From Maribacter aquimaris (GTDB lineage Bacteria > Bacteroidota > Bacteroidia > Flavobacteriales > Flavobacteriaceae), in assembly GCF_014596745.1 (NCBI RefSeq), contig NZ_JABTCF010000009.1:99646-139645 (forward strand): DNA of 40,000 nucleotides, written 5' to 3'. A program made the translations under genes and the position numbers. A model generated the notes under the pieces. It was not told the DNA's origin. It did not search any database and saw only the letters and a list, made by a program, of their open reading frames with translations. Below, piece after piece: positions 6,979-39,731 of this stretch (the first letter of the stretch is position 1; each line of letters opens with the position of its first letter).

Positions 6979-8469
6979 TCAATCAAAAATATGATCCTCG
7001 TAGGCTTTCCACCATTTTTCAATATCGACTTTTGGTTTTCTACAAATATAAAGTGGGATACCGTTCTCTTCGTCAATGGCATATTTGTGGGTGATTATCT
7101 TAACCAATTCAACGTCCTCAAAAACATGTTCCACAGATGGTTTTTCGTTGCCTAAACTGATCCAAACCTTGGCATCCTTATTGCCATAACCCCATGTCCA
7201 GAAAGTTCCGTGCCTACTAATGGGATCGGGTAGTCCATATTTTTTGCCCAATATTTTCAATGCGCCGGCCTCCCCATAATTTTCCGCCCAGAGTACACAA
7301 TGTTCCCTTTCATCAGCGCCCAAAGCGCGGTACACACTATCGACCAATCTTACTTGTTCTTCCCAACCGAACATATCGGCATAGTCACTGGTCAATGCTA
7401 TCCGCCCATTTTTATCTTCCTTAAGGCCCTTATAGGCCACATATTGTTCTATGGGCAATACAGGGGTTAGTTGTGGTATAAAATAAAGGGAAGGCGCTAA
7501 AACAAACGTCGCAATCACATACATCCAGATCGGTTTTTTTAAAAGCAAGGCCTCCAATTTGACCGCCCCGGCCGCAAAAAGGACCGGATATATACCAAAC
7601 ACATAATACGCCTTGGAATGTAGCGCCCATAGGGTGCAAAAAACAACCAAGACGCCTACCCCTACCCCCCTGTATTTGCTTAGGTTTTTACCGAATATCA
7701 TGGCCCCTAAACCAAAAAGACCTACTATCAGGGTGAACGGAAAGTCCAATTGCCCCAAACCGAAGGCCATCGGGTCCATATCATTCAATTGATAGACATT
7801 AAGGGCCTGTAAATGGGCTAAAAGCGGAAAGTCGTGCTGCACCTGCCAAATAAAATTGGGCAAGAAAATAAGCAGTGCGATCAAAGCCGAAATATAGAAC
7901 CATTTGTTTTTAAAGAGGTTGCCTTTTTGATAGAAAAACAGCCCGATCAATACCCCAAAGGCCCAAACGAACATGGTGTATTTGTTCAACAGCCCCAGAC
8001 CTAAGGTAATGCCTAAAAGAATCAGGAACCTTTTGTTTTGGGAATTGATAAACCTAATGATAAAGTAAAAACCCATGGTCCAGAATAATTGGTCAAAGGC
8101 CACGGGTTGAAACAAGGTGTGGTTGCGGTAAAAAGGAAGAAATGCCAATACACAGATTCCTGCAAGAAACACGGCCTTAAAACCACCTCCGAGTTCCTTG
8201 GCCATAAGACAACAAAGAATAAGGATGGCAACCCCTGCAAGTGTAGGAAATAGGCGTACACCCAACAGGGCGTAATCGAAAAACCAGTACGACAATTTAC
8301 CAAGGAAGGCGATAAGGGGCGGAAACTCCATAAAGCCCCAATCGAGGTGCTCACTCACCGATAAATGCAATAATTCATCACGATGGAAGCCGTAATTCCC
8401 ATTCCCCATCCATTGAACAATGAACTTAAACAATGCAAGAATCAGGATAATCGGTGCATATTTTTTCAT
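6979..8469 (-). CDS. GT-C fold glycosyltransferase (family 39/83, ArnT/PMT-like), polytopic membrane protein
   Basis: 496 aa with more than 10 hydrophobic segments, N-terminal GFHRDELLHL loop motif and a soluble C-terminal domain. Confidence 0.8.
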   Translation of the reverse strand: MKKYAPIILILALFKFIVQWMGNGNYGFHRDELLHLSVSEHLDWGFMEFPPLIAFLGKLSYWFFDYALLGVRLFPTLAGVAILILCCLMAKELGGGFKAVFLAGICVLAFLPFYRNHTLFQPVAFDQLFWTMGFYFIIRFINSQNKRFLILLGITLGLGLLNKYTMFVWAFGVLIGLFFYQKGNLFKNKWFYISALIALLIFLPNFIWQVQHDFPLLAHLQALNVYQLNDMDPMAFGLGQLDFPFTLIVGLFGLGAMIFGKNLSKYRGVGVGVLVVFCTLWALHSKAYYVFGIYPVLFAAGAVKLEALLLKKPIWMYVIATFVLAPSLYFIPQLTPVLPIEQYVAYKGLKEDKNGRIALTSDYADMFGWEEQVRLVDSVYRALGADEREHCVLWAENYGEAGALKILGKKYGLPDPISRHGTFWTWGYGNKDAKVWISLGNEKPSVEHVFEDVELVKIITHKYAIDEENGIPLYICRKPKVDIEKWWKAYEDHIFD

Positions 8470-14381: not shown

Positions 14382-14888
14382 TTAAAACATAAAGGCTACA
14401 CCGACCTGTAATGCAGACCCCTTAATATTGAGTACGCCACCAGCGGGATCAGAATACCTATCGGTCAGTTCGAAGGAATAACGTGCCTGGATCGTAAAAT
14501 TATCGGTAACATCGAAACCGGCCCCCACGCCTAAATCCACCCCGAGGTACGGAGTACATCATCAACATCGCCATTGGTACCCAAAAGTTCCTCGGCATCG
14601 CGAATGGTATTTTTAATATCGTCGAGATTTGAGGAGAAATTCAATTGGGGTCCGGCCTGTATGTGAAATTTAGGGGCTACATAATATTTGGCCATGATGG
14701 ACAAATAGACAAATGAAAGGTCTTCGGACTTCCCATAGGTCAGTTCTGGCTGTAGATGGAATTTTTCGGTAGCGGCAATATCGACCAAGGCCCCTATATA
14801 AAAACCGATATTGTTGATGTTCCCGTATTTTTTTCGACCCCGACAAGGTTCAAAAGGCAATCAACGGAAGAAGTAATGATTTTTTCAT
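14382..14888 (-). pseudogene. Frameshifted outer-membrane beta-barrel (PorT/OmpA-barrel-like) gene
   Basis: The ATG at 14888 gives MKKSLLLPLIAF and then a stop. The middle part is the track ORF 14531-14860 (...GFYIGALVDIAATEKFHLQPELTYGK...). The C-terminus sits in a third frame (LGVDLGVGAGFDVTDNFTIQARYSFELTDRY...GSALQVGVAFMF*, stop 14382-14384). The lesions lie near a T7 run (14828-14834) and a C4 run (~14540). Confidence 0.65.
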
Positions 14889-14969
14889 AATCGTATAGTG
14901 TTTAGTTCATAAAACACGAATCGTGTACACTACCTAATACAAATACGATGTCTAATCCAAAAAAGGGCA

Positions 14970-15001
14970 TAAAAAAAGCGAAAACTGGATTTGTTTTCGC
15001 T
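14970..15001 (-). terminator. Rho-independent terminator after the OM barrel gene 15025-15519
   Basis: On the minus strand: GCGAAAACAAATCCAGTTTTCGC followed by TTTTTTTAT. Confidence 0.7.
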
Positions 15002-15024
15002 TTTCGTATGATTGAAAATATGTT

Positions 15025-15519
15025 CTATAGATTGAATAGTACGCCTAGGTTGATTGTAGACCAAGTACCACCATCCAAACTAATTCCGGTATAAGAGGCA
15101 TTGATTTCCACACCATCACTAACGGCATAACCTACGGTTGGTCTGTAATAAAAACCACCATCGTTACCATCGTTGATACCTAAGGCATACCCTAAATCGG
15201 TACCGATAGATAATTCTTCGCTAGCTTTGTACCTGGCGACTCCTGCCAATGGCAAAAATTGCACATCTGGGACTTCATAAGTATATTCGCCTTCCCCGAT
15301 TTCCTTACCAAAAGAATTGGTATAACCGGTAGCGACCCCTAAATCGAAATCACCTGCAGTCTCGAACATGTACTGGGCATCCAAACCAATACTAAAGCCT
15401 GAAAGATCACCGGCATCACCAGTGGGCAAACCTAAATTGGCCCCTAGTCTAAAGCCGTCTTGGGCATTCATTGAAAATCCGATTAGCGCAAAGGCCAATA
15501 CTGCTACTACTTTTTTCAT
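15025..15519 (-). CDS. Small outer-membrane beta-barrel protein (paralogue of 13654-14166)
   Basis: Signal peptide MKKVVAVLAFALIGFSMNAQ and conserved blocks shared with 13654-14166. Confidence 0.75.
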   Translation of the reverse strand: MKKVVAVLAFALIGFSMNAQDGFRLGANLGLPTGDAGDLSGFSIGLDAQYMFETAGDFDLGVATGYTNSFGKEIGEGEYTYEVPDVQFLPLAGVARYKASEELSIGTDLGYALGINDGNDGGFYYRPTVGYAVSDGVEINASYTGISLDGGTWSTINLGVLFNL

Positions 15520-16565: not shown

Positions 16566-17912
16566 TTGGTAGTTGCTGTTCGCTGCTGGCTAATCGCTGT
16601 TCGCTAATGGCTAGTGGCTAATGGCTTTGCGCTTTGCGCTTTGCGCTGCTGGCTGTTCGCTATTCGCTTTGTGCTAATTGCTAATTGTACATTGTTCACT
16701 GCTTACTGTTCACTGTACACTGTTCACTGCTTACTACTATGAACAAAAAACTTTTAACTTATAACTCCCAACTTGGCTGTTCGCTTTTCGCTGCTGGCTA
16801 ATCGCTGTGCGCTATTCGCTATACGCAGACCGCTTATTGCTAATGGTTAATGGCTAATGGCTGTTCGCTTTTCGCTGTTCATTGTTAATTGATCATTGCC
16901 CACTGCCCACTGTTCACTGTTCACTGTTCACTGTTCACTGCTTACTGCTTACTGCTTACTGCTTACTGCTTACTACTATGAACAAAAAACTTTTAACTTA
17001 TAACTCCCGACTTATAACTTCCAACTTGGCTTTTGGCTTTTGTCCCTTGGCTGTTCGCTATTCGCTTTGTGCTAATTGCTAATTGCTAATTGTACATTGT
17101 TCACTGCTTACTGTTCACTGCTTACTGTTCACTGTCCACTGTTCACTGCTTACTGCTTACTGCTTACAGTCCATTGCTTACTGCTTACTACTATGAACAA
17201 AAAACTTTTAACTTATAACTCCCAACTTGGCTGTTCGCTTTTCGCTGCTGGCTAATCGCTATTCGCTATACGCAGACCGCTTATTGCTAATGGTTAATGG
17301 CTGTTCGCTGTTCATTGTTAATTGATCATTGCCCACTGTCCACTGCCCACTGTCCACTGTCCACTGTTCACTGTACACTGCTTACTGCTTACTGCTTACA
17401 GTCCATTGCTTACTGCTTACTGCTATGAACAAAAAACTTTTAACTTACCCCTTATAACTTCCAACTTGGTTTTTGGCTTTTGTCCCTTGGCTGTTCGCTA
17501 ATCGCTTTGCGCTGTTCATTGTTAATTGTTCATTGTCCACTGTTCACTGTTCACTGTTCACTGTCCACTGTCCACTGTCCACTGTTCACTGTACACTGTA
17601 CACTGTTCACTGCTTACTGCTTACTGCTTACTGCTTACTGCTTACTACTATGAACAAAAAACTTTTAACTTACCCCTTATAACTTTAAACTTGGCTGTTA
17701 GCTGTTTGCCATTCGCTGTTCGCCAATTGTTAATTGCTTATTGGTCATTGTTAATTGCTCACTGCCCACTATTTACAGCTCACTGTCCACTGCCCACTCT
17801 TTACTGCTCACTGTCCACTATCCACTGCCCACTGTCCACTGCCCACTGTTCACTGTTCACTGTTCACTGCCCACTGTTCACTGCTTACTGTTCACTGTCC
17901 ACTGTCCACTGT
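16566..17912 (+). repeat. Heptanucleotide-lattice composite satellite, locus 1 (5 anchored units plus 1 degenerate unit)
   Basis: Heptad blocks of GCTNNNN, then AATTG/CATTG, then YYNACTG (TTCACTG, CTTACTG, CCCACTG, TCCACTG), followed by the anchor CTATGAACAAAAAACTTTTAACTTA. Anchor ATGs lie at 16739, 16978, 17193, 17425 and 17650 (spacing 239/215/232/225). I verified by hand one unbroken 7-nt lattice from 16575 to 17421. Confidence 0.95.
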
Positions 17913-18010
17913 TCCCCCATCCTTTTCGCCTAAATCCTTTTTTTTCTGACCAAAGTGTAACATTTTTGTAAAACGGACTACTTATAACGTAACAACCACC
18001 AAACAAAATC

Positions 18011-21343: not shown

Positions 21344-21346
21344 ATA

Positions 21347-22211
21347 ATTGGCTTTTCGCTTAGCGCTGTTCGCTGTTCGCTAAACGCTTTGTGCTAATTG
21401 CTAATTGTACATTGTCCACTGTTCACTGTTCACTGCTTACTGTTCACTGCTTACTGCTTACTGTTCACTGCTTACTGTTCACTGCTTACTGTTCACTGCT
21501 TACTGCTTACTGCTTACTGCTTACTGCTTACTGCTATGAACAAAAAACTTTTAACTTATAACTCCCGACTTATAACTTCCAACTTAACTTTTCGCTTAGC
21601 GCTTGACGCAGACCGCTAATCGCTTTTCGCTAATGGCTAATGGCTGATGGCTACTGGCTACTGGTTACTGGTTACTGGCTACTGGCTACTGGCTTTCCGC
21701 TAATCGCTAAACGCTTTGTGCTAATTGCTAATTGTCCACTGTTCACTGTTCACTGCTTACTGTTCACTGCTTACTGCTTACTGCTTACTGCTTACTACTA
21801 TGAACAAAAAACTTTTAACTTATAACTCCCGACTTATAACTCCCCACTTGGCTTTTGAAATTTGGAATTTGCTAATGGCTACTGGCTACTGGCTACTGGT
21901 TACTGGTACTGGCTACTGGCTACTGGTTACTGGCTACTGGCTGTTCGCTAAACGCTTTGTGCTAATTGCTAATTGTCCACTGTTCACTGCTTACTGTTCA
22001 CTGCTTACTGTTCACTGCTTACTGCTTACTGCTTACTGCTTACTGCTTACTGCTTACTGCTATGAACAAAAAACTTTTAACTTATAACTCCCGACTTATA
22101 ACTTCCAACTTAGCTTTTCGCTACTGGCTACTGGCTATTGGCTTTCCGCTAATCGCTATTCGCTTTGCGCTAATTGCTAATTGCTAATTGCTAATTGCTA
22201 ATTGCTAATTG
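21347..22211 (+). repeat. Heptanucleotide-lattice composite satellite, locus 2 (3 anchored units plus a terminal GCTAATT block)
   Basis: Anchor ATGs at 21536, 21800 and 22062 (spacing 264/262). Locus-specific GG(C/T)TACT heptads (for example 21635-21690 and 21876-21940). Six perfect CTTACTG at 22018-22059 and six perfect GCTAATT at 22169-22210. Confidence 0.95.
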
Positions 22212-22236
22212 AAATTTAGAATTCACCTTTCCCTTA

Positions 22237-32431: not shown

Positions 32432-33292
32432 TTTGGAAATATGATTACTGAATATTACGTTTTGCCGAATAGGTTAAAGTTTGATTTTAATGACTAAGAT
32501 CAAAGGGTTTGATTCTTCATCAAAACTATCCTCTTTTACAATCAAAATCACATAGTATCTTATTGAAAACCTATATATTTTTGATGATTTCTGATAAGAT
32601 TATCCAAATTTCGGAATTTCAGGTTAATATGCCATTAGCAAAATCATAAGTTTTATCGATTCAATATTTACTTTAAATCACAGGAATTAATCAATGAAAT
32701 AAAAAGTATGGTCAAACCTGGGTCAATCCCAAAATAGGCCGTTCCTTTTTTAGGACCCCGTTCAGGGGTGTGAAAAATATAGCATTCTTCCTTTATGGAT
32801 TAACCACAATTTTTGCATAAACACAACAATTGATCCTGATCCTCAAACCTTACCCCCGGTCCTGGCCATAATTTTGAAATATTATCGGTAACGATCTTAA
32901 GAAAATGGGAGATATTCCCTTGGGCTGGAACAAATGGACTATAATTACTAGGTAGACTTCCCCTGATTGGGTACAAATCACCTTCAGCACTACAAAAAGT
33001 AGGAACAGGAACTGAATTTTGGAATAAAATAGGGGATTGGGGACATTTACTCTTGGGCGATAGTGTTTACCAGACCTTTTTGACCGGCAAATTTGACAGG
33101 GATAAACCTTTAATCAATCGTTGAAAAGTACTTTTCGAGAAAAAACCCTTCCCTTTTGACACCCGATTTTTTCAACGGATTATGTCTTAGAAAGTCCCCC
33201 AAAAACAGGTTATAACAAAAATCTTTCCTTTATCCGCACTGAAAACTGAACACTGAATGTAATCTTCTTTTGGCTATCATACATAAATACAC

Positions 33293-33430
33293 TCAGTATC
33301 CAGCATTCGTCAACAACCTATCAACTACTAAAAATCTTATACGCAGTATCTTTATTTTCCACTAACCGATACAACGCATAACAAATAACAAATATGTCTA
33401 AATTCCCAAGTTCAGGAACGTGGAAATTTG
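33293..33430 (-). repeat. Copy B of the ~140-nt paralogous intergenic element
   Basis: See copy A. It lies immediately downstream (on the minus strand) of the small gene 33439-33672. Confidence 0.7.
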
Positions 33431-33438
33431 TAAGGACC

Positions 33439-33672
33439 TTATTTTGATTTAGACCTAAACCGCAAAGATTTTATATCCTTTATCATAGTGATGCCCAATA
33501 ATAAAAAGGAGCATCCAAACACCGATTTTCCAATCGTACAAAACGCACATTCAAAATAATTCAATGAACATCCCATATAATGACTGACACAACCAACGAT
33601 AATCATAATGAGGTAATCAACCATTACGAAAACCGATAATAAGAACAACGATTTTATAGCTATATCTTTCAT
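33439..33672 (-). CDS. Small Cys-rich two-TM hypothetical protein
   Basis: 77-aa ORF with two hydrophobic segments and a Cys cluster in the central third (CVSHYMGCSLNYFECAFCTIGKSVFGC). No homology recognised. Confidence 0.4.
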   Translation of the reverse strand: MKDIAIKSLFLLSVFVMVDYLIMIIVGCVSHYMGCSLNYFECAFCTIGKSVFGCSFLLLGITMIKDIKSLRFRSKSK

Positions 33673-33854
33673 GTCCGTACTATTTAAAATCTTGGATTAC
33701 TTCTTTATTTAAAGGTAAATAGCAAGTACAGCTTCACAAAGTACTTTAGATAACCATTTCTTTGCCTTACTAATGGTATTTTTAACATTCTATGATGTAA
33801 TTTTACATTTTATGCCTTGAAACACAAAAAGATAGAACAAACATTCCAGATATA

Positions 33855-37038: not shown

Positions 37039-37485
37039 ATGGAACCTCATTTTTTTAACGTAGATGTAAATTGGAAAAAGGATCGTATGGGAGTTATGTG
37101 CTCCCCAGAATTAAACCTTGAAACCAACAATTGTATAGAAATTGCCACTCCACCGGAATTCCCCAAAGGCATGCCTGGAAAATGGTCTCCAGAACATTTA
37201 TTTACCGCAGCAGTGAATAGCTGTTTAATGACCACCTTTTTGGCGATAGCCGAAAATTCAAAATTGGAGTTTTCAAGTTTCAGTTGTAAATCAAAAGGGA
37301 AAATGGAACGTGTCGAAGGTAAATATCTAATGACCGAAATTGTTTTGGAACCATCTGTGACTATTTCCGATGAACAATACAGGGGGAAAGCAGAAAAGGT
37401 CTTACAAAAATCAGAGGCTGCATGTTTAATTTCCAATTCGATAAAATCGAAAATAACCATGGTTCCGACCATTCATATCGCCTAA
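37039..37485 (+). CDS. OsmC/Ohr-family peroxiredoxin-like protein
   Basis: 148 aa; SPEHLFTAAVNSCLMTTF and ...SEAACLISNS carry the two conserved Cys regions. The antisense 141-aa ORF is a shadow. Confidence 0.85.
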   Translation: MEPHFFNVDVNWKKDRMGVMCSPELNLETNNCIEIATPPEFPKGMPGKWSPEHLFTAAVNSCLMTTFLAIAENSKLEFSSFSCKSKGKMERVEGKYLMTEIVLEPSVTISDEQYRGKAEKVLQKSEAACLISNSIKSKITMVPTIHIA

Positions 37486-37585
37486 ACCAACCCATAACAT
37501 CAGGTAAAGGTAGACTGTCGTACAAATTGAAATCATGGGTTTAATATACCTAAATCCTTTAGCCATCCGTATGACTTTTATTCAT

Positions 37586-38583
37586 TTATCGCTATTCGCT
37601 TGGCGCAAATCGCTATTCGCACATCGCTTACCGCCAATTGCTCATTACTAACTGTACATTGTTAATTGTTCATTGTTCACTGCTTACTGTTCACTGCCTA
37701 CTGTTCACTGCCTACTGCCTACTGCTTACTGCTTACTGCTTACTGCTTACTGCTATGAACAAAAAACCTTTTAACTTATAACTTCTCACTCATAACTTCC
37801 AACTTGGCTATTCGCTGCTCGCTAATCGCAGACCGCTTATCGCTATTCGCTTGGCGCAAATCGCTATTCGCACATCGCTTACCGCCAATATCTCATTACT
37901 AACTGTACATTGTTAATTGTTCACTGCTTACTGTTCACTGCCTACTGTTCACTGCTTACTGTTCACTGCCTACTGCTATGAACAAAAAACCTTTTAACTT
38001 ATAACTTCCAACTTTGCTATTCGCTGATGGCTGCTCGCAGACCGCTTATCGCTATTCGCTTGGCGCAAATCGCTATTCGCACATCGCTAACCGCCAATTG
38101 CTCATTACTAACTGTACATTGTTAATTGTTAATTGTTCACTGCTTACTGCTTACTGTTCACTGCTTACTGTTCACTGCTTACTGTTCACTGCCTACTGTT
38201 CACTGCCTACTGTTCACTGCCTACTGTTCACTGCCTACTGCCTACTGCTTACTGCTTACTGCTTACTGCTATGAACAAAAAACCTTTTAACTTATAACTT
38301 CTCACTTATAACTTCCAACTTGGCTATTCGCTGCTCGCTAATCGCAGACCGCTTATCGCTATTCGCTTGGCGCAAATCGCTATTCGCACATCGCTTACCG
38401 CCAATTGCTCATTATTACTAACTGTACATTGTTAAATGTTCTCTGCTTACTGATTACTGCTTACTGCTTACTGTTCACTGCTTACTGTTCACTGCTTACT
38501 GTTCACTGCTTACTGTTCACTGCTTACTGTTCACTGCTTACTGTTCACTGCCTACTGTTCACTGCCTACTGTCCACTGTTCAC
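37586..38583 (+). repeat. Heptanucleotide-lattice composite satellite, locus 3 (3 anchored units plus 1 terminal unit)
   Basis: Anchor ATGs at 37755, 37978 and 38271 (spacing 223/293). It carries the locus-specific CCTACTG heptad, the anchor variant AAAAAACC and a near-identical ~95-nt GCAGACCGCTTATCGCTATTCGCTTGGCGCAAATCGCTATTCGCACATCGCT...TGTACATTGTTAATTGTT block. Confidence 0.95.
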
Positions 38584-38717
38584 CCCCCTATACATTACCC
38601 ACCGTCTTTCCCCCAAAAATTAGTTAGGTATTCCGTTGTCATATGGTCGCTAAATTCGTAACTTACTCCTTGAATTTTTTTCTAGTAAACCAATCAAAAT
38701 TAATACCTAATAATTAC

Positions 38718-39731
38718 ATGAAAAACAAGATGAATACCTTGGCCTTCGCATGCAGTGCGATTTTCCTTTTCTCAACAACCATCGGATGTAAGAATAAGGA
38801 ATCGAAACCCTCAGAAGCCGAAGCTACGGAAGTTCAGGCAGAAGCTGAACCAGACTTTAAAATTTCCTTGGCCCAATGGTCCCTGCACAAAACCTTTTTT
38901 GGAGGTCAAATCGACTGGGAAAATTTTGGGAAAACACTAAAGGAATCACCCGATGATCTACTGAAAGGCCCGGATCCCATGGAATTTCCTGCAATGGCAG
39001 CGGCTTATGGCATAAACACCATCGAATTGGTCAATACCTTTTACTTCAGTAAAGGCGATGACATGGCGTATTGGACAGCCTTTAAAAAGAAATGTGATGA
39101 GGCCGGGGTAACGGTCGGTTTGATCATGTGTGATGCCTTGGGCAATCTTGGGGATGCTGATCCCGAAAAGCGTAAGGCTACGGTTGAAAACCATTACAAA
39201 TGGGTCGATATCGCCGAATTCCTAGGGGCACATTCCATTCGTGTGAACGCAGCCGGTGAAGGTACCGCCGAAGAAGTAGCCGAACATGCGGTCGCCGGAC
39301 TTAAAAGTTTAGCGGAATACGGTGCAACTAAAGGCATCAACATCATCGTAGAAAACCATGGTGGTTATTCTTCCGATGGTACATGGCTCAGTGGGGTCAT
39401 GGATAAAGTAGGTATGGACAATGTAGGTACACTCCCCGATTTCGGGAATTTCTGTATCGAAAGGGGTCCCGATGGTTGCATCAAGGAATATGACCGCTAT
39501 AAGGGAATCGCGGAATTAATGCCCTATGCCAAAGGCGTAAGTGCCAAATCACATAATTTTGATGAAAATGGCAATGAAGTGGATTCCGATTTTCTACGTA
39601 TCATGAAAATTGTAAAGGAATCCGGATTCAAAGGCTATGTCGGCATCGAATATGAAGGTACCGAACTTTCCGAAGATGAAGGTATCAAGGTAACAAAAGC
39701 CTTGTTAGAGAAAGTATTTGCTGAATTGTAA
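38718..39731 (+). CDS. Sugar phosphate isomerase/epimerase (xylose isomerase-like TIM barrel), lipoprotein
   Basis: The ATG at 38718 gives MKNKMNTLAFACSAIFLFSTTIGC (lipobox). Motifs SIRVNAAG, IIVENHGG and VGIEYEG. Confidence 0.8.
   Translation: MKNKMNTLAFACSAIFLFSTTIGCKNKESKPSEAEATEVQAEAEPDFKISLAQWSLHKTFFGGQIDWENFGKTLKESPDDLLKGPDPMEFPAMAAAYGINTIELVNTFYFSKGDDMAYWTAFKKKCDEAGVTVGLIMCDALGNLGDADPEKRKATVENHYKWVDIAEFLGAHSIRVNAAGEGTAEEVAEHAVAGLKSLAEYGATKGINIIVENHGGYSSDGTWLSGVMDKVGMDNVGTLPDFGNFCIERGPDGCIKEYDRYKGIAELMPYAKGVSAKSHNFDENGNEVDSDFLRIMKIVKESGFKGYVGIEYEGTELSEDEGIKVTKALLEKVFAEL

Follow-up and report, generated by a model that had tools for sequence, protein, structure and literature searches.

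How did a bacterial intergenic array come to hold several long repeat units that resemble one another more closely than they resemble units of the same satellite at nearby loci? The question was raised by a 40,000-nucleotide (nt) stretch of the Maribacter aquimaris genome (contig NZ_JABTCF010000009.1, positions 99,646 to 139,645 of the forward strand), referred to here as the window, which contains three arrays of a satellite made of 7-nt words, or heptads. These satellite loci are designated L1, L2, and L3, and the labels L002 to L023 denote the outside sequences and genomes with which they were compared. A reading of the letters alone, called here the sequence-only reading, had proposed that the units of L3 were amplified or converted locally and were not independently inserted copies of a mobile element. 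We consider it probable that L3 is an array of a strand-asymmetric, non-coding heptad satellite in which an old array took up one imported anchored unit and was then reshaped by tandem amplification and slippage, and that it is likely functionless. The arrays belong to a known class of bacterial intergenic heptanucleotide repeats, and it is their higher-order organization that is new.

The L3 array is continuous and head-to-tail, and its plus strand is poor in G, with a C/G ratio of 2.06. Cutting that strand after every G yields nearly all 7-nt words, a procedure we call heptad parsing, and the periodicity is far beyond chance, with Tandem Repeats Finder (TRF) scores of 100 to 218 at a period of 7 or 14. 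A period-7 self-match scan of the window gave matches confined to L1, L2, and L3. These three loci, which together make up 8.1% of the window, are all intergenic and all on one and the same strand, the plus strand being G-poor throughout (C/G, 1.5 to 2.1). Their heptads are arranged in large units of 220 to 310 nt with four parts in constant order: an A/T-rich anchor of the form ATGAACAAAAAACCTTTTAACTTATAACTT...CCAACTTGG, CG-type heptads (including CTATTCG and CTAATCG), TTG-type heptads (including CCAATTG, TACATTG, TTAATTG, and CTAATTG), and CTG-type heptads (TTCACTG, CTTACTG, and CCTACTG, with CTTACTG the commonest heptad), after which comes the next anchor. The CTG-type tracts alternate as 14-nt dimers, as seen from 74 lag-2 heptad identities in 130 comparisons versus 39.5 ± 4.8 after shuffling, a count attained in none of 5,000 shuffles. 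The leading unit of L3 has no anchor and starts at the unique left flank, which truncates the 5' side of the first copy of a recurring block. The features of the three loci are as follows.

37586..38583, plus strand: L3 heptad satellite array, one leading and three anchored units (TRF and heptad parsing)
37586..37668, plus strand: block copy 1, 83 nt, the array's original left edge, collinear with that of the related sequence L003
37676..37752, plus strand: CTG-type tract of the leading unit, 11 heptads (TTCACTG, CTTACTG, CCTACTG)
37755..37807, plus strand: anchor 1, 53 nt, ATGAACAAAAAACCTTTTAACTTATAACTTCTCACTCATAACTTCCAACTTGG, with the extra C
37837..37919, plus strand: block copy 2, 83 nt, two substitutions
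37920..37975, plus strand: CTG-type tract of unit 1, 8 heptads
37978..38016, plus strand: anchor 2, 39 nt, with the extra C and without the 14-nt CTCACTCATAACTT piece
38046..38128, plus strand: block copy 3, 83 nt, one substitution
38136..38268, plus strand: CTG-type tract of unit 2, 19 heptads
38271..38323, plus strand: anchor 3, 53 nt, with the extra C
38353..38438, plus strand: block copy 4, 86 nt, a 3-nt insertion and one substitution
38439..38578, plus strand: terminal CTG-type tract, 20 heptad-length tokens, up to the conserved right flank CCCCCCTATACATTACCC
16566..17915, plus strand: L1, same satellite, five anchors, arranged A-B-A-B plus a terminal unit
21344..22215, plus strand: L2, same satellite, three anchors

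Most of the variants that the sequence-only reading had named as peculiar to L3 were found, some of them with corrections. The three anchors are present on the plus strand with their ATGs at 37755, 37978, and 38271, and all three carry the extra C (AAAAAACCTTTTAAC), whereas eight of eight anchors in L1 and L2 read AAAAAACTTTTAAC. The heptad CCTACTG occurs in every L3 unit (12 copies, distributed 3, 2, 5, and 2) and is absent from L1 and L2, as had been stated, with three further copies in the remaining ~37 kb of the window. At the level of the genus this exclusiveness breaks down, as CCTACTG is found in the L2-site arrays of Maribacter polysiphoniae and Maribacter polysaccharolyticus. Among the window loci, CCCACTG (7 copies) is likewise confined to L1 and CTACTGG/GCTACTG (12 copies of GCTACTG) to L2. 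The variant ACTTCTCAC, said to be in every unit, is in units 1 and 3 and missing from unit 2, which lacks that 14-nt piece. The near-identical block does occur four times (at 37586, 37837, 38046, and 38353), with pairwise identities of 93 to 99% (80 to 82 matches per 83 to 86 alignment columns), but it is 83 to 86 nt long and not ~95 nt, and it is not wholly private to L3 in that the first ~22 nt of the block as quoted (GCAGACCGCTTATCGCTATTCGC) are also in L1 and L2 as 13-mers. The unit lengths of 223 and 293 nt were given correctly. The 70-nt difference between units 1 and 2 consists of heptad multiples, spread over several tracts (−14 in the anchor, +7 in the middle block, and +77 in the CTG-type tract), but length does not vary purely by heptad number, since unit 3 has a 3-nt insertion. 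We counted 11 anchored units and 3 leading segments, 14 in all, in place of the 13 units reported.

Similarity between units was measured for the 11 anchored units over the anchor and the CG/TTG middle block, because heptad copy number dominates and distorts whole-unit identities. The L3 units are 80 to 86% identical to one another, and their identity to units of the other loci averages 62% and reaches 74% at most. Indeed, the L3 triplet is the most similar of the 165 possible unit triplets and forms a clade in the neighbor-joining tree. Identity within loci exceeds that between loci across the window (permutation P = 0.004). The expected clustering by locus was obtained for L3, but L1 and L2 are mixed in the tree, an outcome that answers in part to what the sequence-only reading had itself named as refuting. 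This follows from the split of L1 into two subtypes (u1 and u3, 87% identical; u2 and u4, 85%; cross-type pairs, 56 to 63%) and from the likeness of L1_u2 to L2_u3 (74%), to which it is nearer than to its own L1 neighbors. The concerted pattern applies to L3 and the interior L2 units, L1 being split in two. The A-B-A-B arrangement at 16739-17649 in L1 is a duplicated two-unit block of ~450 nt, a second level of higher-order repeat. The proposal that the L3 units were copied in place and were not inserted as mobile copies is supported by their clade, their shared derived changes, and a block that is the array's own left edge.

A scan for the anchor pattern covered one genome per bacterial species, 185,579 species-representative genomes in all, and the pattern was found in only one, that of M. 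polysiphoniae DSM 23514. A scan of metagenome contigs gave no genuine match, its one hit (L002) being by chance. Judged from these sequences, the satellite occurs in a narrow group of Maribacter species, within the Flavobacteriaceae. M. polysiphoniae has an orthologue of the window's L2 with conserved flanks and an L1 orthologue in the same 8-kb stretch, and its unique DNA is ~86 to 87% identical to that of the window. Its anchor variants are array specific (CACGTTCACAAAAACTTTTAACTTAACAC at L1 and CTATGAACAAAAAACTTTTAACTAATAACTCCCC at L2), and each of its arrays holds one pair of adjacent units that are 100% identical. Private heptads track the locus and not the species, CCCACTG marking L1 and CTACTGG marking L2 in both the window and M. 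polysiphoniae. Each terminal unit pairs with one in the other species (W.L1_u5/M.L1_u2 and W.L2_u3/M.L2_u5, where W is the window and M is M. polysiphoniae), and the interior units group by species. Interior units that cluster by species and locus, with edges that pair across species, are what concerted evolution of the satellite type produces, and conserved edges together with homogenized interiors are the pattern expected of unequal exchange in a tandem array.

Orthologues of the L3 locus were retrieved via the OsmC gene that precedes it. The synteny from OsmC to the sugar isomerase gene is common to two lineages, L003 (~91% nucleotide identity) and L010 (~87%), and both have a heptad array between the same flanks, CCATTTATC on the left and CCCCC..TA.CCATTACCC on the right. 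These L3-site arrays contain CCTACTG and lack the anchor. The first heptads in L003 (TTATCG CATATCA CTTGGCG) align collinearly with those that open the 83-nt block in the window (TTATCG CTATTCG CTTGGCG), and since L003 has this as its single left edge, the four-fold block in the window is a copy of L3's own edge. The unique flanks of L3 are 86% (left) and 92.5% (right) identical to those of L003, the nearest relative, a difference of 7.5 to 14%. The block copies differ from one another by only 1 to 7%, so that they appear younger than that split. Painting L3 with 13-mers revealed a mosaic of three kinds of parts. The anchor, the TTCACTG/CTTACTG heptads, and CGCAGACCGCTTATCGC are in common with L1 and L2 of the window and with M. 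polysiphoniae; CCAATTGCTCATT...CTAACTGTACATTG and CTGATGGCTGCTCG are in common with the L3 orthologues; and CTTGGCGCAAATCG and CACATCGCTTACCG are unique to the window's L3. Seven short-read (Logan) contigs, L004 to L009 and L011, end inside the L3-site array, and satellites thus fragment Maribacter assemblies. The best protein matches of the window proteins are 94 to 95% identical.

A history that accounts for this mosaic can be outlined. On the comparison of orthologous spacers, an anchor-less, CCTACTG-bearing array was already in the OsmC/sugar-isomerase spacer of the common ancestor with the closest relatives. The window lineage would then have acquired one anchored segment, comprising TTCACTG/CTTACTG heptads, an anchor, and CGCAGACCGCTTAT, parts that L3 has in common with L1 and L2. 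Because the closest relatives are anchor-less at L3, the first anchored unit most likely came from another array, and it probably arrived by inter-array recombination through shared heptads. Exchange between loci therefore most likely took place once. The sequence pattern shows that the resulting mosaic, with the array's own left-edge block included, was duplicated in tandem three times, presumably by unequal recombination or replication slippage and after the split from the L003 lineage. Later changes in the number of 7-nt and 14-nt subrepeats have the pattern of slipped-strand mispairing. The same two-level turnover operates at L1, at L2, and in M. polysiphoniae, with interiors homogenized within species and edges orthologous between species. 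Gene conversion, which had been offered alongside amplification, is not required among old paralogues, as the homogeneity reflects recent duplication. The earlier proposal is thus partly supported: it was right for local amplification at L3, was overstated as a general rule, and missed the probable import of an anchored unit. The arrays are most likely without sequence-specific function, near-neutral, and filling the unconstrained part of the spacers.

Several points weigh against this history. The gain of the anchor is deduced from only three L3 lineages, which separate losses in L003 and in L010 would explain as well. A single snapshot does not distinguish tandem duplication from gene conversion. 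The window's copy numbers carry the caveat that they rest on the assembly, and short-read assemblies break at arrays. Neutrality is an argument from absence; the sense orientation of arrays and their match to GC skew, both described below, could reflect selection on polarity, and function could also explain why different species retain arrays at the same spacers.

The genes next to the arrays are ordinary ones, encoding a XerD-like recombinase, an extracytoplasmic function (ECF) sigma factor, a cyclophilin, a glycine transporter, OsmC, and a sugar-phosphate isomerase-like protein. Those that border L3 are the following.

37039..37485, plus strand: OsmC family gene, upstream of L3, ending ~100 nt before the array
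38643..39731, plus strand: xylose-isomerase-like TIM barrel gene, downstream of L3, with a likely start at 38715 from gene length in relatives

Between the L3 array and the downstream gene lie 60 to 131 nt of unique sequence. The L1 array begins at the stop codon of the XerD-like gene, and the L2 array sits between the convergent cyclophilin and glycine-transporter genes. L1 and L2 come within ~10 nt of stop codons, and 60 to 131 nt are left before start codons. This stop-abutting, start-avoiding placement is what unconstrained expansion bounded by promoter regions would produce. Open reading frames (ORFs) of 72 to 135 codons cross the arrays (17526-17933, 21725-22087, 38014-38274, and 38405-38623), because G-poor heptads seldom make stop codons; these ORFs have no family match and could be misannotated as hypothetical proteins. 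A coding role for the arrays was rejected, as the anchor ATG opens only 8 to 20 codons, the extra C at L3 shifts the frame, and the array ORFs are without a Pfam match.

Heptad arrays were found in every close Maribacter relative examined. Maribacter arenosus and a related genome, with ~79% nucleotide identity to the window, have other genes after OsmC and for that reason lack the L3 site; elsewhere, spacers of these two genomes have arrays of other words (GACTTTC, CAACCAA, CTGAAAC) that are G-poor on one strand. M. polysaccharolyticus and two metagenomic lineages have anchor-less arrays at the cyclophilin/transporter (L2) spacer with reversed polarity relative to the genes. These reversed arrays, at 7996-8567 in L016, 1-490 in L018, and ~100-690 in L023, as compared with the orientation in the window and M. 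polysiphoniae, either arose independently or were inverted. No arrays were found at the L1 and L2 sites of Maribacter halichondriae and one metagenome-assembled genome (MAG). Arrays therefore come and go quickly across the genus. Array polarity matches the sign of the local GC skew at 7 of 8 or 9 independent sites. A replication-strand rule for polarity was not established, M. polysaccharolyticus and MAG L018 disagreeing with the skew sign.

Among other explanations, the one that survives best, although we regard it as unlikely, is that the arrays act in cis, as functional elements, once they are transcribed. Lying downstream of genes, the plus strand, poor in G, rich in C, and free of structure, would load Rho or a single-strand-binding protein, a candidate binder being a cold-shock or S1-type protein as proposed for the TAACTGA repeats discussed below, and homogenization would be partly selected. 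The C/G ratios of 1.5 to 2.1 are consistent with this, as is the folding of the plus strand, which is less structured than its shuffles (z = +1.5), the minus strand being neutral (z = 0). Related species change their heptads yet keep the G-poor asymmetry (CAACCAA and GACTTTC, with skews down to −0.83). Where an array lies between co-directional genes, it is sense oriented in four of four cases, a sample too small to separate transcription, replication, and chance, and the L1 and L2 arrays start no more than ~10 nt from stop codons. A protein-binding role has been suggested for heptamer repeats (PMC4679880), and those of Xanthomonas and Nostoc are mostly transcribed (PMC4692102). However, the arrays are 10 to 15 times as long as any known Rho-loading site, and CTTACTG, the commonest heptad, is without a YC dinucleotide. 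Polarity at the cyclophilin/transporter site is reversed in M. polysaccharolyticus and two lineages, some species are array-less there, and there is a complete turnover of array content between genomes with 87 to 91% identity.

Two more specific functional candidates were rejected. A structured RNA was set aside, with no excess folding on either strand and no match in Rfam 15 at the gathering score in the whole window or at an E value of ≤1 in 37400-38800; that interval also contains no inverted repeats. Promoters were dismissed on one sigma-70-like match versus 3.2 expected and no Bacteroidetes −7 motif in any array, the 38 TAnnTTTG motifs of the window all being outside the arrays. In a phase-variable contingency locus, the repeat is inside a reading frame or between the promoter elements of the gene that it controls. 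The arrays are not within reading frames, keep a distance of 60 nt or more from start codons, and have no TAnnTTTG inside.

A broader proposal, which we judge rather improbable, is that the arrays are a bacterial counterpart of higher-order satellite DNA, kept because polarity matters. Their G-poor, unstructured strand would serve as a transcribed platform (for Rho loading or, as a 3' untranslated region, for a single-strand-binding protein) or as a replication-strand-specific signal, with the anchor as a putative protein-binding landmark and homogenization driven in part by selection. Eukaryotic satellites such as alpha satellite have a hierarchy of monomers, dimers, and higher-order units, with homogenized interiors, divergent orthologous edges, and rapid turnover between close species. 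The same hierarchy, homogenized interior, and orthologous edges were found here, an analogy of process only. The window array measures 1 kb and not megabases, and such arrays are in bacterial intergenic spacers and have no centromere or chromatin role.

Strict concerted evolution, in which the L3 units would be old paralogues kept alike by repeated gene conversion, is distinctly improbable in our estimation. Several derived variants common to the units, and the clustering of interior L1 and L2 units by species and not by position, would suit it. However, the nearest relatives are without anchored L3 units, so there were no old paralogues to homogenize, and the variation in unit number between species at L1 and L2, together with the 100% identical neighbors, is the signature of duplication and deletion. 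It is very improbable that the arrays or their unit counts are an assembly artifact, as might be suspected from the short-read contigs of related samples that end within arrays. Independent assemblies (M. polysiphoniae DSM 23514, a Logan contig, and an ENA scaffold) have arrays between the same flanks, and the four block copies carry private substitutions, unexpected from collapsed or duplicated reads.

The idea that the units are small mobile elements, resembling miniature inverted-repeat transposable elements (MITEs) or repetitive extragenic palindromic (REP) sequences and inserted independently, draws on the presence of the same anchor at three window loci and two M. polysiphoniae loci, and it is hardly credible given the lack of target-site duplications and of inverted repeats, whether terminal or internal, units that are never solitary and always head-to-tail in a single orientation, L3 units that contain locus-specific edge sequence, no phage-record match, plasmid matches only to other simple heptad arrays, and an anchor pattern limited to one species-representative genome and a single chance hit among metagenome contigs. 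Like these arrays, MITEs and REP sequences, the latter including bacterial interspersed mosaic elements (BIMEs), are short, non-coding, intergenic, often downstream of genes, and sometimes clustered, but the palindromes or terminal inverted repeats that define them were not found in the window arrays. A clustered regularly interspaced short palindromic repeat (CRISPR) array was rejected on the finding that the sequence between anchors is itself repeated, as the four-fold block and the heptad tracts. No Cas domain was found by Pfam among 10 array-flanking proteins, the rest of the window not having been checked for cas genes.

Reports of intergenic heptanucleotide repeats in bacteria go back more than 30 years, beginning with the short tandemly repeated repetitive (STRR) sequences of cyanobacteria, and there is no agreement on either their function or their mode of evolution. 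The STRR heptads of heterocystous cyanobacteria, reportedly described by Mazel and colleagues in 1990, are CCCCAGT, TTGGTCA, and CAACAGT. None of these has a tandem copy on either strand of the window, and a strict cyanobacterial STRR was rejected on the absence of its heptads and on a host that is a flavobacterium. The arrays do belong to the wider class of STRR-like long simple sequence repeats (LSSRs), with tandem 7-nt copies beyond chance at three intergenic loci within 40 kb. Published examples of heptamer arrays between genes come from Bacteroidetes and cyanobacteria (PMC4679880, PMC4692102), and in many bacterial genomes heptanucleotides are the commonest kind of long simple repeat, with polymerase slippage proposed as their origin (Mrazek et al. 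2007, as cited in PMC4679880 and PMC4692102). The intergenic G-rich heptamers of Xanthomonas and Nostoc were characterized by Rehm et al. 2015 (PMC4692102). Long heptanucleotide repeats, whether STRR or the GGGAATC and GGGGA(C/T)T repeats of Xanthomonas and Nostoc, are tandem, almost always intergenic, dispersed, G-asymmetric, and presumably slippage-grown, as are the window arrays. In contrast, the window heptads are different words with one G each, so that a G-quadruplex is impossible; several heptad types follow one another in ordered succession; and the anchor cuts the array into units of 220 to 310 nt that are themselves tandemly amplified.

Another parallel is offered by TAACTGA arrays, which MacGregor 2015 reported from Beggiatoaceae, cyanobacteria, and five Bacteroidetes (PMC4679880). 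Gramella forsetii and Aequorivita sublithincola have long TAACTGA arrays in spacers, with other heptamers too, and the arrays are missing from close relatives, with contigs breaking there (MacGregor 2015, PMC4679880). The window arrays share with these a heptad core of the NNNACTG type, a lack of arrays at the same spacer in close relatives, and breaks in assemblies. There are no TAACTGA doublets in the window and three single copies, none of them in an array. In the BOGUAY pattern the repeats are in forward orientation and a few nucleotides upstream of starts, whereas the window arrays end 60 to 131 nt before starts and abut stops, and higher-order units and locus-specific variant signatures are not described for TAACTGA repeats (PMC4679880). 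Literature searches returned no description of such arrays in Maribacter.

A plasmid search returned a Chryseobacterium record with (CTAATCG)x64 and cyanobacterial plasmids with TTxACTG arrays. The former, the unannotated record L021 (NZ_CP111120.1, Chryseobacterium fluminis "plasmid unnamed," 7335 bp), holds the repeat as a perfect array. Part of that record looks like 23S rRNA by eye, and presumably it may be a misassigned chromosomal rRNA-operon fragment and not a plasmid.

Other repeats were seen in distant Maribacter. A conserved non-heptad core of ~70 nt, CTTCYGGTTCTCGATAC-[hairpin]-...AAAATCACTCGAACTGAC, is interleaved with heptad arrays in L012 (~14440-14530, 14700-14780, 14950-15030, and 17680-17760), L015 (~14480-14540 and 17210-17280), and L018 (~75-135 and ~250-310). 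For its inner hairpin, M. arenosus-type loci have GATTTTCC(T/A)TGAAAATC and MAG L018 has CCCCGAGCATTCGGGG, with the outer CTCGA/TCGA stem kept. This core, which is absent from the window, is possibly a structured repeat element, with folding z scores of −1.2 to −2.2 and no Rfam match. In M. polysaccharolyticus (L016, ~7700-7990), a second, unrelated repeat with a 13/14-nt period (TTCAAGGGTCAAG / TTCAAGGATCAAG) is beside the heptad array and is rich in purines on the G-poor strand of the heptads. Within the window, positions 32432-33854 are a 1.4-kb AT-rich stretch (GC, ~0.34) with no ORF of at least 80 codons, upstream of a Crp-family regulator gene and with small tandem repeats at 33238-33257 and 33776-33814; relatives call only a 77-amino-acid gene at the corresponding stretch.

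Taken with the orthologous loci in four to five Maribacter genomes, the window is an unusually readable record of array change. It registers 7- and 14-nt slippage, amplification of units of 220 to 310 nt, conserved edges, and variants that stay tied to their locus across speciation, and it includes at least one probable case of a unit passing from one array to another. That the arrays break short-read assemblies and carry ORFs has practical consequences for the assembly and annotation of flavobacterial genomes. Should selection on array polarity be demonstrated, the arrays would be candidates for a new 3'-end or chromosome-organizing signal in Bacteroidota.

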